Shown: in pieces, positions 21,678-26,951 of the stretch
Layout of the letters: each line of letters begins with the position of its first letter
Numbering within the stretch: position 1 is the stretch's first letter
UHGV virus genome: UHGV-0059448
Reading direction: 5' to 3' (one strand)
DNA length: 29,315 nucleotides
DNA from: a virus
Made by a program: the position numbers and the translations under genes
Notes under the pieces: model-generated
Database searches by the model: none
Told to the model about the DNA's origin: nothing
Seen by the model: the letters and a program-made list of their open reading frames with translations, nothing else

Positions 21678-22406
21678 CTATCGACGGCACTGCTGCCAGA
21701 TAACACCACCGGGGAAACATTCCATCATGATGGCCGTGCGGACATAGGAAGCCAGTTCATCCATCGCTTTCTTGTCTGCTGCCATTTGCTTTGTGACATC
21801 CAGCGCCGCACATTCAGCAGCGTTTTTCAGCGCGTTTTCGATCAACGTTTCAATGTTGGTATCAACACCAGGTTTAACTTTGAACTTATCGGCACTGACG
21901 GTTACCTTGTTCTGCGCTGGCTCATCACGCTGGATACCAAGGCTGATGTTGTAGATATTGGTCACCGGCAGAGGTGTTTCGATTGCCGCTGCGTGGATAG
22001 CACCATTTGCGATAGCGGCGTCCTTGATGAATGACACTCCATTGCGAATAAGTTCGAAGGAGACGGTGTCACGAATGCGCTGGTCCAGCTCGTCGATTGC
22101 CTTTTGTGCAGCAGAGGTATCAATCTCAACGCCAAGCGTCATCGAAGCGCAATATTGCTGCTCACCAAAACGCGTATTGACCAGGTGTTCAACGGCAAAT
22201 TTCTGCCCTTCTGATGTCAGAAAGGTAAAGTGATTTTCTTTCTGGTATTCAGTTGCTGTGTGTCTGGTTTCAGCAAAACCAAGCTCGCGCAATTCGGCTG
22301 TGCCAGATTTAGAAGGCAGATCACCAGACAGCAACGCGCCACGGAAAAACAGCGCATAAAGCACTTCATTAGCAGCGCCAGATAGCGTAATGATTTTGTT
22401 ACTCAT
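21678..22406 (-). CDS. hypothetical protein (243 aa), function unknown
   Basis: ATG at 22406 (MSNKIITLSGAANEV...) with AAGGAAA SD, preferred over the upstream start at 22445; lies between an upstream terminator and cosQ; not recognised as any lambda gene. Confidence 0.7.
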   Translation of the reverse strand: MSNKIITLSGAANEVLYALFFRGALLSGDLPSKSGTAELRELGFAETRHTATEYQKENHFTFLTSEGQKFAVEHLVNTRFGEQQYCASMTLGVEIDTSAAQKAIDELDQRIRDTVSFELIRNGVSFIKDAAIANGAIHAAAIETPLPVTNIYNISLGIQRDEPAQNKVTVSADKFKVKPGVDTNIETLIENALKNAAECAALDVTKQMAADKKAMDELASYVRTAIMMECFPGGVIWQQCRR

Positions 22407-22517
22407 GGAATATTTCCTTTTAGGCGTGAGCCTGTCGCACAGCAAAGCCGCCGAAAGTTAACGGTTTGCCCAGGCTCACAACTGAAAGACTTTCTACGGT
22501 GTGCGCGTGCGATGCGC

Positions 22518-22545
22518 ATAAAAAAGCCCCGCATAGGCGAGGCTG
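22518..22545 (-). terminator. rho-independent terminator after the peptidase gene
   Basis: Minus-strand RNA AGCCUCGC-CUAU-GCGGGGCU followed by UUUUUUAU, about 20 nt after the stop of the 22563..23465 gene. Confidence 0.6.
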
Positions 22546-22562
22546 GAATCAGACAGGGGGGA

Positions 22563-23465
22563 TTAAGACTGGATATTCCAAATCATTGCGTTACCGTTAT
22601 GATTTTCAATGATTTTTGCCAGTGGTGCTCCACCAAAAGAATGCATGTAGCTGTGATGTATAGTCAAAACCAAATCTTGAAGTACTTGATCACTTTCAAG
22701 TTCGGTAACATTCAACCCAATTTTCTGCGCCTTATCAAAATGAATATGACGCGAGTGGGTATAGGTTGTGTGATGGTTGTTTAACTCTGAACAAACATGT
22801 GTTGCTTTTGATTCTGCCTCAGGATCATTATCAAACATGCCTGTCATAAGCCAATGCTTAACAATCTCATTTGCCCATTTGATTGCTTTCTCACACTCGC
22901 CGATGATCGTCGGGTTTAGCTTTTGAAGAATGAACTGCCACATCTGAACAGCTGCGGGATTTTGAAAAATTTCCGTCTGCGCACGATTCCATTCTTCAAT
23001 GATGGCATGGGTGGAGAAACCGTTGAACTGAGGATCAATTGGGCCAATGTTGGACTGTTTACCCATGATGATTTCATTGGCACAACATGCAAGCATAGTT
23101 CCGCAGGACATTGAAATCATAGGAACAATTGCTCTGATGTTAGTTCCAAACTTCGACCTTAAGTAATGCCCGATTGATTCCAAAGCGGCAATATCACCAC
23201 CTGGAGTATGAAGTATCAAATCCAACCCTTTTGATACATCTAAACCATTGATGGCTGTCATCAACCCGTTCTTATCATCATCAGTCATCTGAGTAAGATG
23301 GCGTACTTCTGCACCACCATGCTGTAACCACCCTGAGTAATATGTGATTACATTTCTTCCAGTATGATTCGAAAGTTGAGATAAGTATTTACGGCGAACC
23401 TCATCCATAGGACTTTTATGGGCGAGAGCCGTTATCTCGCCCAGTACGTCGCTCCAATTAGGCAT
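22563..23465 (-). CDS. ClpP-fold serine peptidase-like protein (S49 / serine dehydrogenase proteinase-like), accessory
   Basis: 300-aa ORF, ATG at 23465; motifs LILHTPGG and ISMSCGTMLA followed by IGPIDPQ resemble the oxyanion/nucleophile regions of ClpP/S49-family peptidases; lower GC than structural genes; second such protease in the window besides C. Family assignment is from motif recognition only. Confidence 0.65.
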   Translation of the reverse strand: MPNWSDVLGEITALAHKSPMDEVRRKYLSQLSNHTGRNVITYYSGWLQHGGAEVRHLTQMTDDDKNGLMTAINGLDVSKGLDLILHTPGGDIAALESIGHYLRSKFGTNIRAIVPMISMSCGTMLACCANEIIMGKQSNIGPIDPQFNGFSTHAIIEEWNRAQTEIFQNPAAVQMWQFILQKLNPTIIGECEKAIKWANEIVKHWLMTGMFDNDPEAESKATHVCSELNNHHTTYTHSRHIHFDKAQKIGLNVTELESDQVLQDLVLTIHHSYMHSFGGAPLAKIIENHNGNAMIWNIQS

Positions 23466-23468
23466 AAA

Positions 23469-23669
23469 TCAGTACGTGTAAAGTTGATGACTTGTAGTTT
23501 GGTTTTGCTTCGATTGTGTAGCGGTACCTTGTGAGTACCAAACACCTGTGTTTCCACTCGTACTAGTTTGCTGTGCCATTACACGAGAAGCGAAGTTGTT
23601 AACAGTTTCACCAGTCAACATTTCTGCCGGTTTGATATTGTAAACATCGTAGAACTCAGCTGGGGTCAT
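23469..23669 (-). CDS. small hypothetical protein (66 aa), first gene of the peptidase operon
   Basis: ATG at 23669 with AAGGAG SD 8 nt upstream; stop TGA 3 nt before the peptidase ATG (possible translational coupling); C-terminal half Gln/Thr/Ser-rich. Confidence 0.65.
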   Translation of the reverse strand: MTPAEFYDVYNIKPAEMLTGETVNNFASRVMAQQTSTSGNTGVWYSQGTATQSKQNQTTSHQLYTY

Positions 23670-23780: not shown

Positions 23781-24039
23781 AAAAGATGCAAAAATACTAT
23801 CTATGACGTGACTATAGCTACTTACCCACAGTTTATACAAGCCAAAAATGCTAAATTCAGATAATCCTATTCGCTGAAAAACTACACAAAAGCTACGTTC
23901 ATCTTGTCATTAGATAACGTCAGTAACTTTCACTGGATCTAAGCCATTGGTGAAAAAGCTAATTGCATGATGAAGCACTGTAATGTAGCAGTTGAGGTTG
24001 TTAAATGAGAATCACCCTAACAATGTCAACGGACATTAT

Positions 24040-24576
24040 TCATTTTCGTAACTTCTCAATCTCTCGTATACCCGCCAGGTTATTGTTGCCCTTCTCAATA
24101 ACAGCCAGCAAAGGTTCAATCCAGAGGACGGCCTGGCAATACGTCATTGAGCTGGCGGCAGCGGTACTATCATCGGTTGCGTTAGTGTTCCCGGTATCGG
24201 GGTGCATTGCGCTGGCACGTAAACGGTACGCGTATTTGAGCAGCCCACCAGCGACATCAGCAGGAACAGGCAGATCACAGGTCTTTTCACGTCGGAGAAT
24301 CTCCCGGTATTCGATGACAGTTTTCTCAGTACCGGCATCGATCAGCGAGTTAAGGCGGTTGGCGTTCTCTGCTATCTGGTTAAACCGATTGAAGTTGAAA
24401 GCCTGTGTAGTTATCACCGTCGCCTGCAGCGCGTTATCATTACGTAATACCCGATTCTCACTCTGTTCTGTTTCAAGAGCTGAGCGGCTACGAACCAGTA
24501 ATACGCTAAGCACTGCAATAATGATTACGACAGCCACCAGCAGAACCGCAACAATCGTAATTTTTCTGGGTTTCAT
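24040..24576 (-). CDS. Rz: spanin, inner membrane subunit (Rz-like)
   Basis: 178-aa ORF with N-terminal transmembrane helix (ITIVAVLLVAVVIIIAVLSVLLV) and a charged helical periplasmic part; start overlaps the endolysin stop; contains an embedded lipoprotein ORF in another frame. Confidence 0.8.
   Translation of the reverse strand: MKPRKITIVAVLLVAVVIIIAVLSVLLVRSRSALETEQSENRVLRNDNALQATVITTQAFNFNRFNQIAENANRLNSLIDAGTEKTVIEYREILRREKTCDLPVPADVAGGLLKYAYRLRASAMHPDTGNTNATDDSTAAASSMTYCQAVLWIEPLLAVIEKGNNNLAGIREIEKLRK
24144..24290 (-). CDS. Rz1: spanin, outer membrane lipoprotein subunit (Rz1-like), embedded in Rz
   Basis: Frame embedded within Rz; probable GTG start at 24290 (GGGAG about 10 nt upstream) giving MKRPVICLFLLMSLVGC with lipobox LVGC; Pro-rich mature part (...PIPGTLTQPMIVPLPPAQ). 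The ORF track lists an ATG at 24338 as an alternative start. Confidence 0.7.
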   Translation of the reverse strand: MKRPVICLFLLMSLVGCSNTRTVYVPAQCTPIPGTLTQPMIVPLPPAQ

Positions 24577-25148
24577 CAGAATACCCCCGGAACTGATACC
24601 GGAATGCCAGGGTTAAGCGGCCCGAGTCCATCCCCCAGAACCTGAGGTTTCTCTGCCCACAGGCAAACTTCACGCTCAATCTCACGCCTCGTGATTAAAC
24701 CCTTCCACTGTTTGTCACCAGCATAGATCCAGCGCCGCAGTTGTTCGCATGCGCCTTTCGAATCACCCTGGTTGATTTTTCGTAACAGTGTGGAGGTTTT
24801 GAAGTTTCCCGCGCCTACGTTATACGCAAATGAGTACAGCGCCCCTCTCATCGTTTCGGGGATCGGAGCATTGATATATGGGTTAATCTGTCGGGCGACA
24901 ATATTCAGGTCTTTATCCAGCAGCGCCTGGCACTCTGCTTTGGTGTAGGTCTTGCCGAGGATAATATCTTTACCAGTATGGCCCCAGCATACAGTCCACA
25001 CTCCAACAACATCCCGATAAGGCTGATAGCGTACACCTTCAAGGCCATCATTACCCGTTGGGCCAGTAATCAACGCCGCAGCGATAGCAATAGCGCCAGC
25101 GGGTATCGCTGCAATAACGCTATTCTTCAGCTTTGGTGGCATAGCCAT
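24576..25148 (-). CDS. R: SAR endolysin (T4-type lysozyme, phage 21 R-like)
   Basis: 190-aa ORF; N-terminal signal-anchor-release segment ([18 protein letters not shown]) followed by GNDGLEGV...[14 protein letters not shown] catalytic region resembling phage 21 R as recalled. Confidence 0.9.
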
Positions 25149-25398
25149 TGCGCCGATCCTCCCGTTCTTTCCAGCGGAAATACCAGTTCACTGCACAGGT
25201 AATAACAGTGCATGCGATACCGACAATAATTGCCCAGTCGCTCAGGCTTAACCCTGCAATTCTGTCGGCCAACATCCAGGACACCTCTTTTGCTGTTTTA
25301 GCTGTTTCGGCATATGCCTTCGCTGATACACCGCAGCCGGTCAGCGTGGTTCCTGTTCCATATGAAAGTCTGCTGTAAATGGTGCTCATTCTGGTCAT
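25120..25398 (-). CDS. S: holin (phage 21 S-like pinholin) with dual-start motif
   Basis: 92-aa ORF beginning MTRM (ATGs at 25398 and 25389) with GGAGGTGAGG SD; two predicted TMDs and C-terminal KEREDRR resembling S21; 3' end overlaps the endolysin start. Confidence 0.85.
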
Positions 25399-25605
25399 AG
25401 CCTCACCTCCGATTTTTCGGATGGCGCTGTGTGTGTGTTTGAAAAGGGTCAGGCTTCACGGGCTGGATTTATCAACAAAGCACGTAGCGGATGATTCCCG
25501 TGAGCCTGAAATTGATGAATATGTCTGAAATAACTAGACCATTAGTAAAACAACTCGATAAATGTGGTTAAATGAGACTACGTTCTCACAACTTAATTAG
25601 TACCA

Positions 25606-25776
25606 ATGATTATCAAGCCCTGCCCCTACTGCGGAAAGTTAATTAACCCAGAATCACTTGTGTGTAGCCACTGCCGGATAGTGAATCCTTTTGTGAAGGC
25701 CAGCAGAAGAGAAAAAGCGAAGAATGTATTAGTAATCGCTCTCGTTGCTGCTTTTTTAATTTGGATGATTCTCTGA
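25606..25776 (+). CDS. small zinc-ribbon membrane protein (56 aa), putative
   Basis: Plus-strand ORF MIIKPCPYCGKLINPESLVCSHCRIVNPF... with two CxxC pairs and a C-terminal hydrophobic helix (VLVIALVAAFLIWMIL); below the ORF-track size cutoff; weak SD; AT-rich insert between tR'-like terminator and holin. Confidence 0.4.
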   Translation: MIIKPCPYCGKLINPESLVCSHCRIVNPFVKASRREKAKNVLVIALVAAFLIWMIL

Positions 25777-25807
25777 GTTGCCAGTTTTCAATGAAGATAA
25801 TGCGGGC

Positions 25808-25835
25808 AAAAAAAAGCCTGCTCGGACGAACAGGC
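25808..25835 (-). terminator. rho-independent terminator, candidate tR' of the late leader transcript
   Basis: Minus-strand RNA GCCUGUUC-GUCC-GAGCAGGC followed by UUUUUUUU; about 140 nt downstream of the candidate late promoter. Confidence 0.6.
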
Positions 25836-25978
25836 ATGAAAAATAACAATACCGTCAAGGAGGTGGCGCCGGGTGCCTCCCGGTGGAACAGCCCCAGCCG
25901 ACTAGTTCCGCGCAAACAAACCTGGACAAAAAAGTTTGACTGGACGCCCCGCCGCATAGGGGGATTCACCACACGAAT

Positions 25979-26008
25979 AGATTAACAACATGTTAATTTT
26001 CTGGTCAA
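25979..26008 (-). promoter_or_regulatory. candidate late promoter pR'
   Basis: Minus-strand TTGACC (26008..26003), 18-bp spacer, TAATCT (25984..25979); context ATATCTTATTGAC resembles the lambda pR' region as I recall it. Weak -10, so assignment is tentative. Confidence 0.3.
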
Positions 26009-26261: not shown

Positions 26262-26951
26262 TTAATTGACTTTTGCAAGACCCTGCTGCGAAAAAGTCGC
26301 TTTTTGTTGTGATCGTGTTCTCACAGCACAGAGAAGAGAGTCGCTATCAAGCCGCTTAAAAATGGCGCACATAGCCCGCCAGTAATCAGCGTAGTTATGG
26401 CACCAGTTATCAGGCTTAACGCCACACAGGGCTGCAAGGTCCTGGTGCTGATATACATACTTACCCGCCAGCTCTGCTTTCACGTCCTGTGCCGCCAGCC
26501 ATATCAGTTTCTTCAGCCGCTCCATCGTCTTGCCGGCCACTTTCTTAGCGCCGAGTTGATCACGGAATTCTTCCCATGCCCACTGTGTTATCGCTACTTG
26601 ATACTCAAAGCGGATATTGTCGCTGTAGTTCCACAGCAACCAGGATTTCTGGTGGTCTTCCAGCGACAGGAGGGCGCGGCGCCAGCTGGCTGTCGAGTAT
26701 TCAACGGGCAGAACGAGAGCGATTGAGGAACCCTTAGCGCGGGACTGGCTGCCGCTCATCGGCGGTCCATCCGGGTTAACCATTTTTTGCTTCACCTCGC
26801 TATACACCTTCTTCCGGCCACGGCTGCGCGCCGTAGCGGTAAATTGCGCGTTCTCTGCAAAAGCTACCAGTTGCCCTTTCGTCGCACCACTCAGATCGGC
26901 GGTGGCCACTATCAGCTGCTGGCGAACAAATTCCAAGTATTGAGCTGTCAT
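26262..26951 (-). CDS. putative late-gene antiterminator (Q-like by position; family not verified)
   Basis: 229-aa ORF, ATG at 26951 overlapping the stop of the preceding small ORF (ATGA); last gene before the late promoter/terminator region and lysis genes; sequence does not resemble lambda Q as recalled. Confidence 0.5.
   Translation of the reverse strand: MTAQYLEFVRQQLIVATADLSGATKGQLVAFAENAQFTATARSRGRKKVYSEVKQKMVNPDGPPMSGSQSRAKGSSIALVLPVEYSTASWRRALLSLEDHQKSWLLWNYSDNIRFEYQVAITQWAWEEFRDQLGAKKVAGKTMERLKKLIWLAAQDVKAELAGKYVYQHQDLAALCGVKPDNWCHNYADYWRAMCAIFKRLDSDSLLCAVRTRSQQKATFSQQGLAKVN

Follow-up and report, generated by a model that had tools for sequence, protein, structure and literature searches.

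We analyzed UHGV virus genome UHGV-0059448 as a stretch of 29,315 nucleotides (nt), referred to below as the window. Positions 24,040 to 25,398 of the window carry a lysis cassette that is encoded on the minus strand. An initial annotation, made from the letters alone, had described here a lysis module of the phage 21 type: a pinholin-like holin with two starts, an endolysin with a signal-anchor-release (SAR) segment, and an Rz gene in which Rz1 is fully embedded. A check of open reading frames (ORFs) located the four frames at exactly the coordinates, and in the reading frames, that had been given. The elements of the cassette are listed below; S21 and R21 denote the holin and the endolysin of phage 21.

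25120 to 25398, minus strand: holin, long (putative antiholin) form of 92 amino acids (aa), start MTRM; the short (putative holin) form begins at the ATG at 25389.
25404 to 25426, minus strand: candidate hairpin sequestering the Shine-Dalgarno (SD) sequence upstream of the holin, from the minimum free energy (MFE) fold.
24576 to 25148, minus strand: SAR endolysin, GH24, R21 type, 190 aa.
24579 to 24650, minus strand: Gly/Pro-rich C-terminal tail of the endolysin, from alignment to R21 and RrrD.
24040 to 24576, minus strand: Rz (i-spanin), 178 aa.
24144 to 24290, minus strand: Rz1 (o-spanin), in the +1 frame of Rz, with a GTG start; the open frame runs from 24338 to 24144.

The 3′ end of the holin gene overlaps the endolysin gene by 29 nt, the ATG of Rz shares one base with the endolysin stop (TGATG), and Rz1 lies wholly inside Rz, ending 104 nt short of the Rz stop. 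PHROG profiles match the holin (PHROG 20, 2.9e-21), the endolysin (3.7e-66), Rz (PHROG 214, Rz-like spanin, 1.4e-56) and Rz1 (phrog_456, 4.9e-7, an o-spanin-type family that PHROG also names Rz-like spanin); in Pfam the endolysin is a Phage_lysozyme (PF00959, 1.9e-44). Given these family matches the frames are real genes rather than chance ORFs. Three antisense ORFs on the plus strand over the cassette (24005-24616, 24978-25202 and 25148-25378) returned no match in a family search and are therefore treated as spurious.

Our reading is that a lambdoid prophage of E. coli very probably has here an intact lysis cassette among its late genes, one that would follow the phage 21 route (pinholin plus SAR endolysin) and finish with a two-component spanin. 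Homology and sequence are the basis for the gene identities, for the assignment of the endolysin to the R21 type, for the embedded spanins, and for the conservation of both a dual-start motif carried by the holin and a non-ATG start in Rz1.

The endolysin and phage 21 R (OL657228.1) share 79% identity across all 165 residues of R21, the SAR segment included, and the enzyme matches the R21 structures (PDB 3HDE and 3HDF, 7.8e-90) and that of DLP12 RrrD (4ZPU, 3.7e-89). Residues E37, D46 and T52 align with E35, D44 and T50 of R21, the Glu-Asp-Thr triad that, from the work on 3HDE and 3HDF, we take to be catalytic. The initial annotation had called the enzyme a SAR protein rather than a cytoplasmic one and had named hydropathy as the check that could overturn this; hydropathy bears it out. 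A segment at about residues 9-29 (25124-25062) consists to 60% of Gly, Ala, Ser and Thr, follows two lysines (K6 and K8) and aligns residue for residue with the SAR domain of R21. Hydropathy of the N-terminus reaches 2.52 on the Kyte-Doolittle (KD) scale for a 17-mer, and the Hessa sum of the SAR segment (+1.25, against +0.78 for R21) points to the same marginal hydrophobicity. Residues 1-53 contain no Cys; absence of Cys from the SAR domain separates the refolding type, represented by R21, from the disulfide-isomerization type of P1 Lyz. By homology this is an R21-type SAR endolysin; its SAR segment is predicted to be uncleaved and would tether the enzyme to the membrane until its later release.

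Two ATGs stand at the start of the endolysin gene (MAM...). Because a GGAGG lies 9 nt upstream of the first (25148), and because the second Met is replaced by Ile in some relatives, the first ATG is the likely start. The first nine codons, MAMPPKLKN (25120-25148 in the window; loci L057-L136), are common to two unrelated families of SAR endolysin, the R21-like family and a 182-aa LDQFLDEKEGN type. The shared codons are those that overlap the holin gene, which places the joint of the exchange inside the endolysin gene.

At its other end, where the alignment to R21 stops at residue 167, the endolysin carries a tail of 24 aa, rich in Gly and Pro. R21 and RrrD lack this tail, and in a set of 50,697 phage records HK225 is its only carrier. 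In 25 loci the tail comes in 11 variants, all of constant length and without stops, and its last codons contain the SD sequence of Rz. In Kluyvera sichuanensis (L020:799-887) the R21-like endolysin has no tail, and a spacer of 88 nt that contains a short hydrophobic ORF (VNVICFFIAALLAFHGNDAWPWFLAVGVIMS) lies between it and Rz. Origin of the tail by read-through of such an intergenic spacer was considered and rejected: the Kluyvera spacer is not homologous to the tail-coding DNA.

The spanin genes present a different picture. Rz has the strong N-terminal transmembrane domain (TMD) of an i-spanin (residues ~7-28, KD ~3.5), and Rz1 has the form of a small lipoprotein: translation from the GTG at 24290, sixteen codons ahead of the lipobox Cys (L-V-G-C), gives MKRPVICLFLLMSLVGC, with a signal of 16 aa (MKRPVICLFLLMSLVG) followed by the Cys (codon 24242-24240) and by Ser at +2. 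The mature peptide is 32 aa long and contains 7 Pro and one Cys in addition to the lipidated one; together with the periplasmic Cys100 and Cys147 of Rz, this residue would be available for intermolecular disulfides. None of the Pfam and NCBIfam spanin models matches Rz, BLASTP against Rz21 detects no similarity (E 0.42), and the similarity of Rz1 to the phage 21 o-spanin is marginal (E 0.002) and limited to signal and lipobox. The pair thus falls outside the Rz-Rz1 sequence family of lambda and phage 21, of which it is an analog, and belongs to the HK225/mEp237 family: Rz is nearly identical to the HK225 i-spanin described by Kongari et al. 2018 (PMC6139136).

Damaged o-spanin genes were seen in two relatives in which Rz is open. 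A stop lies within the Rz1 signal sequence in Citrobacter portucalensis (L011), and mature Rz1 is truncated to 19 aa in Kluyvera genomosp. 3 (L042); o-spanins are apparently decaying in some prophages.

The start of Rz1 had been assigned to the GTG at 24290, with translation from the upstream ATG as the finding that would refute it. The codon 16 before the lipobox Cys was surveyed in 52 sequences: 50 related loci from 185,579 species-representative genomes, HK225 and the window. It is GTG in 46, CTG in 4, ATG in 1 (L038) and GGG in 1. A GGGAG lies 10 nt upstream of this codon in 46 of the 52 (at 24305-24301 in the window) and is absent from all 5 loci that have lost the GTG. Furthermore, the assignment agrees with expert curation: Kongari et al. 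2018 (PMC6139136) give the o-spanins of HK225 and mEp237 a total length of 48 aa and a mature length of 32 aa, and place the HK225 start 286 nt into the i-spanin gene (layout 'emb'). The offset of 24290 from 24576 is also 286 nt, that is, the same codon.

The alternative is that Rz1 is made mainly from the ATG at 24338, as a 64-aa precursor with a long n-region, and that the GTG persists through the demands of Rz. In the window this ATG is open and in frame, 28 of the 52 loci keep an in-frame ATG of some kind upstream, and within Rz the GTG falls across the codons for Arg-Glu. Conservation of GTG and GGGAG is accordingly in part constrained by the overlapping gene, a point that counts against our assignment, as does the prospect that minor initiation may occur at 24338. 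Against the alternative, the ATG at 24338 has no SD sequence; an in-frame stop lies between the upstream-ATG position and the −16 codon in 20 of the 52 loci, and 23 have no in-frame ATG anywhere upstream of the Cys. Moreover, loss of the GTG always goes with loss of the GGGAG and the appearance of another start. In one relative (L038) ATG stands in the very place of the GTG, which turns an Arg of Rz into His, and the CTG of the Pantoea clade turns an Arg of Rz into Thr; the overlapping Rz codon alone therefore does not fix the GTG. We regard main use of the upstream ATG as improbable, and initiation at the GTG as strongly supported by the sequence comparison. Either precursor would give an identical mature lipoprotein of 32 aa.

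In a divergent clade of Rz1 (L050, L051, L052 and L055, from Pantoea dispersa and related metagenome-assembled genomes (MAGs); also L049 and L054) both the GTG at −16 and the GGGAG have been lost. The four Pantoea/MAG members lacking the GTG have a TTG at −24 behind a strong GAGGAGAGGG, which suggests start-codon turnover between non-ATG codons inside one embedded gene family.

The holin gene opens with ATG-ACC-AGA-ATG (MTRM), the two in-frame ATGs at 25398 and 25389 that had been read as a classic holin/antiholin arrangement. In the family alignment M1 and M4 each reach a conservation of 90% or more, and 57 of 62 full-length representatives of holin clusters show M-x-[K/R]-M or M-[K/R]-x-M; the exceptions include two with MTIM (no charge) and two without Met4. 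As a basic residue separates the two Met, the long form has one positive charge more than the short form, which is the relationship between S21 71 and S21 68, where both products have been shown and the long form bears the extra positive charge (PMC9636201).

The translation initiation region (TIR) also resembles that of phage 21 S. A GGAGG (25410-25406) lies 7 nt ahead of Met1, and a second SD-like element, GAGG, lies 11 nt ahead of Met4. In the MFE fold the GGAGG is paired in a hairpin (CGCC-A-UCCGA / UCGGA-GGUG; z −2.1 for a 50-nt piece), and the phage 21 S TIR folds alike: a hairpin on GGAGG, then 7 nt, then AUG-N6-AUG. Across 25 distinct relatives, pairing holds in 97.8% of cells, against 38-52% with slid partners; both arms are invariant, whereas the loop and the upstream flank vary. 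Weighing against a conserved sequestering structure, the covariation test was not significant (132 of 500 shuffles reach the score), there being only one compensatory change; the hairpin is accordingly put forward as a weakly supported candidate.

It is conceivable that only Met1 or only Met4 is used, so that MTRM is an ordinary N-terminus and no antiholin exists. The HP1 holin is without a dual start (PMC7312051), and the two MTIM relatives and the two lacking Met4 fit such a view. Retention of both Met with Lys or Arg between them in 57 of the 62 does not, nor do the match in spacing and hairpin to S21 and the presence of SD-like elements at suitable distances from both starts. A single start seems quite unlikely to us; by analogy with S21, the conserved motif would give rise to a holin/antiholin pair through use of both ATGs.

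Pinholins of the S21 type have two TMDs (N-in/C-in), of which the first is weakly hydrophobic, SAR-like and able to exit the bilayer, and they form small holes (~2 nm, heptameric) that depolarize the membrane and do not pass proteins. The term pinholin-like, applied to this holin by the initial annotation, holds as far as family membership is concerned: the protein matches Pfam PF16080 (HP1 holin) with 44.3 bits (cut-off 28.8) and PF04971 (P21 holin S) with 31.6 bits (cut-off 26), and BLASTP against S21 (a query 100% identical to phage 21 OL657228.1) gives 42% identity over 38 aa (E 2e-4). S21 is an experimentally shown pinholin (review PMC9636201); the HP1 holin, whose partner is a SAR endolysin, likewise behaves as a pinholin in experiments (PMC7312051). 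By hydropathy there is one clear TMD (residues ~55-74), beyond which the C-terminal tail is charged, and the invariant T67 and N71 align with T51 and N55 of S21. Toward the N-terminus a Gly/Thr/Ser-rich stretch, the most conserved part of the protein, aligns in the family alignment with STGIAYGTSAGSAG, the start of TMD1 of S21. The protein is thereby placed, by similarity, as a distant class II holin of the HP1/S21 superfamily for which a two-TMD class II pinholin topology is plausible.

Several observations weigh against that topology, and with respect to them the earlier term needs qualification. The Pfam matches are confined to residues 38-80, in the C-terminal half, and the similarity to S21 covers only TMD2 and the charged tail. 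The N-terminal segment is interrupted: relative to S21 there is an insertion of ~18 aa in the TMD1 region (3 residues shorter in most relatives), after which the alignment resumes at W41. It is also even less hydrophobic than the already marginal TMD1 of S21, the crude Hessa sum of the best 19-mer being +9.0 against +6.4. AlphaFold2, run on the holin family alignment, returned a mean pLDDT of 59.8, with residues 1-28 scoring below 50 and modeled without a helix. In 89 of 89 readable loci the gene downstream of the holin encodes an endolysin that has a hydrophobic segment at its N-terminus (15-mer KD maximum of 2.06 or more) and belongs to either of two lysozyme families with the same 29-nt overlap. 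However, the holins of these loci are mostly 98-100% identical and do not amount to 89 independent observations, so the pairing is weaker evidence than the count suggests; SAR endolysins are also paired with non-pinholin holins, for instance in P1 (PMC9025707).

These points could be read to mean that the protein makes large holes in the manner of canonical holins, or that it has a single TMD and an extramembrane N-terminal domain of ~50 aa, and that its pairing with SAR endolysins is due to chance. The single clear TMD, the lack of a predicted helix in the first 28 residues, the insertion relative to TMD1 of S21 and the limited Pfam coverage are what such a reading would lead one to expect, and for the HP1 holin, too, in silico topology was reported as inconclusive (PMC7312051). 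It would nonetheless have to account for family-level homology to two characterized pinholins, for a conserved N-terminal segment that aligns with the start of S21 TMD1, for the correspondence of T67/N71 with T51/N55, and for the finding that none of the 89 loci has a soluble endolysin beside the holin. We consider a large-hole or single-TMD holin unlikely, though it deserves to be taken seriously. The pinhole nature of the holes is the least secure step in our reading, and we infer it from the relatives of the holin.

Residues L19-T20-G21-C22 of the holin were considered as a lipobox and ruled out: no hydrophobic h-region precedes them, and relatives have F, L, G, A or W in place of Cys22.

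There is a more speculative possibility, to which we attach little weight, that the 84-92-aa holin family (HK225/mEp237/Mulock type) constitutes a structurally distinct variant of pinholin, together with a functional tail on the endolysin. A conserved amphipathic insertion may split an S21-like SAR TMD1, and the N-terminal domain of ~50 residues may be a periplasm-exposed or membrane-surface regulatory module as opposed to a simple releasable TMD. The endolysin tail, 24 aa and invariant in length, could then serve tethering or delayed activation and would not be a recombination scar.

The cassette is flanked by intact genes. Upstream is the gene for antiterminator Q; downstream are those for Nu1, terminase gpA, a portal of the lambda family and capsid protein gpE, which confirms the earlier remark on lambda-like structural genes. 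The window represents a lambdoid prophage of E. coli. Two features precede the holin.

26262 to 26951, minus strand: antiterminator Q (PF06323, 1.1e-79; PHROG 304, 1.9e-97).
25805 to 26004, minus strand: STnc100-family RNA (Rfam RF02076, 82.6 bits; gathering score 47), with an intrinsic terminator at its end.

Decay into a non-functional remnant of a cryptic prophage is scarcely credible for a cassette with such surroundings. Nothing specific speaks for it beyond the damaged Rz1 of some relatives (L011 and L042); the four frames are intact, as are the flanking Q, Nu1, terminase, portal and capsid genes, and the cassette is near-identical to that of a viable phage, HK225.

The STnc100 RNA is encoded on the late strand, in the interval from Q to the holin. 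The match is full-length, and the terminator consists of a stem at 25835-25816 and a T run. From its position the RNA is probably a terminated leader, that of the late transcript which depends on Q and continues into the holin, and in position it resembles lambda 6S RNA or StxS. A relation of STnc100 to the PasD small RNAs is proposed in a 2026 preprint.

Other genes adjoin the cassette. Between the leader terminator and the holin is a plus-strand ORF of 56 aa (25606-25776) with an N-terminal zinc ribbon (DUF2116, Zn_ribbon_3 sub-threshold) and a C-terminal hydrophobic segment; reverse-strand genes occupy the same position in HK225 and phage Louie. On the far side, between Rz and Nu1 (21678-23669, minus strand), three genes without an assigned role fill the usual moron slot of lambdoid phages: a 66-aa ORF (phrog_25714), a 255-aa ORF (phrog_17079) and a 300-aa ClpP-like serine protease of the SDH family (PF01972, 8.4e-23). 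A PADLOC scan of these three for defense genes gave no meaningful match.

Together these analyses suggest the following course of events. Under Q antitermination the late transcript would pass the leader terminator and enter the cassette. Two holin products would then be placed in the inner membrane, the Met4 form as effector and the Met1 form, with its extra Arg3, as an antiholin that delays triggering; this step is modeled on S21 71/68 and lambda S107/S105, and the ratio of the two forms is probably set by the SD-sequestering hairpin. The endolysin would be exported by Sec and, as in R21, held tethered and inactive in the inner membrane by its SAR segment. Once the holin triggered at its programmed time the membrane would be depolarized, the SAR segment would exit, and the enzyme would refold and degrade the murein. 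Rz in the inner membrane and the 32-aa lipoprotein Rz1 in the outer membrane would then disrupt the outer membrane.

In public genomes the cassette has close counterparts. Its DNA (1.7 kb) is 100% identical to stretches of the chromosomes of E. coli KL53 and NCTC 13148, despite which the Q region of both differs from that of the window. Of the 5426 complete E. coli genomes searched, 122 show some match to the cassette, and only 12 contain at least 80% of it. HK225 is the nearest isolated phage, with 92% DNA identity across holin, endolysin and Rz. These three genes are annotated in HK225; its GenBank and RefSeq records are without an annotated o-spanin or dual start. On the identical cassettes of KL53 (L002) and NCTC 13148 (L138) PGAP labels Rz a hypothetical protein, leaves Rz1 unannotated and places the endolysin start at the second ATG. 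No NCBIfam model matches Rz or Rz1.

The cassette is already known and is not new, since its sequence is in RefSeq, annotation exists for the closest phage, and the spanins have been catalogued together with their GTG start. It is an intact and ordinary four-gene lysis module, and the N-terminal insertion of the holin, the tail of the endolysin and the SD hairpin are modest, uncharacterized variations on a well-understood system. Its relevance is mostly one of annotation quality: in the RefSeq copies Rz is mislabeled, Rz1 is omitted and the endolysin start is shifted. The spanin family appears to use non-ATG starts routinely, mostly GTG and, in the Pantoea clade, probably TTG, and gene callers consequently miss Rz1. 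The cassette is also a further case of modular exchange between lambdoid lysis genes; it makes no open question testable. In sequence it is a mosaic of an R21-type endolysin, a distant class II holin and HK225-family spanins.

Among known systems, lambda S offers a comparison for translational control. In lambda S an upstream stem-loop (sdi) involves the SD sequence of the first start. The two starts of lambda S (S107/S105) are, as in the window, separated by a basic residue (for its dual start see PMC9636201). In contrast, the lambda protein belongs to class I, has three TMDs and makes large holes; its sequence is unrelated, and its partner is a soluble transglycosylase. With Haemophilus phage HP1 the pairing of the holin with a SAR endolysin is shared, and PF16080 is the best Pfam family for the window holin. 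That match spans only residues 41-79 of the window holin, and the HP1 holin has 78 aa and neither dual start nor antiholin (PMC7312051).

Phage 21 (OL657228.1) shares the gene order S-R-Rz-Rz1, the dual-start class II holin with a basic residue between the Met (MKSM in S21, MTRM in the window), the layout of the SD hairpin, the SAR endolysin and an embedded o-spanin in the +1 frame. The cassette differs in that its holin has 92 aa, against 71 in S21, through an insertion in the TMD1 region; in the 29-nt overlap of holin and endolysin; in 2 extra N-terminal and 23 extra C-terminal residues of the endolysin; and in an Rz1 that begins at GTG. Alignment with phage 21, which the initial annotation had proposed as a check on the label phage-21-type, thus gives a divided answer. 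The label suits only the architecture and the endolysin (79% identity); the holin aligns over 38 aa, Rz1 is marginally similar, and Rz is unrelated in sequence.

The closest relatives are HK225 (NC_019717) and mEp237, whose holins are, respectively, 94.6% and 97.8% identical to that of the window. HK225 has the same 190-aa tailed endolysin, the same Rz family and a 48-aa o-spanin embedded at the same offset; what separates the lysis genes of these two phages from those of the window is a matter of point differences only.

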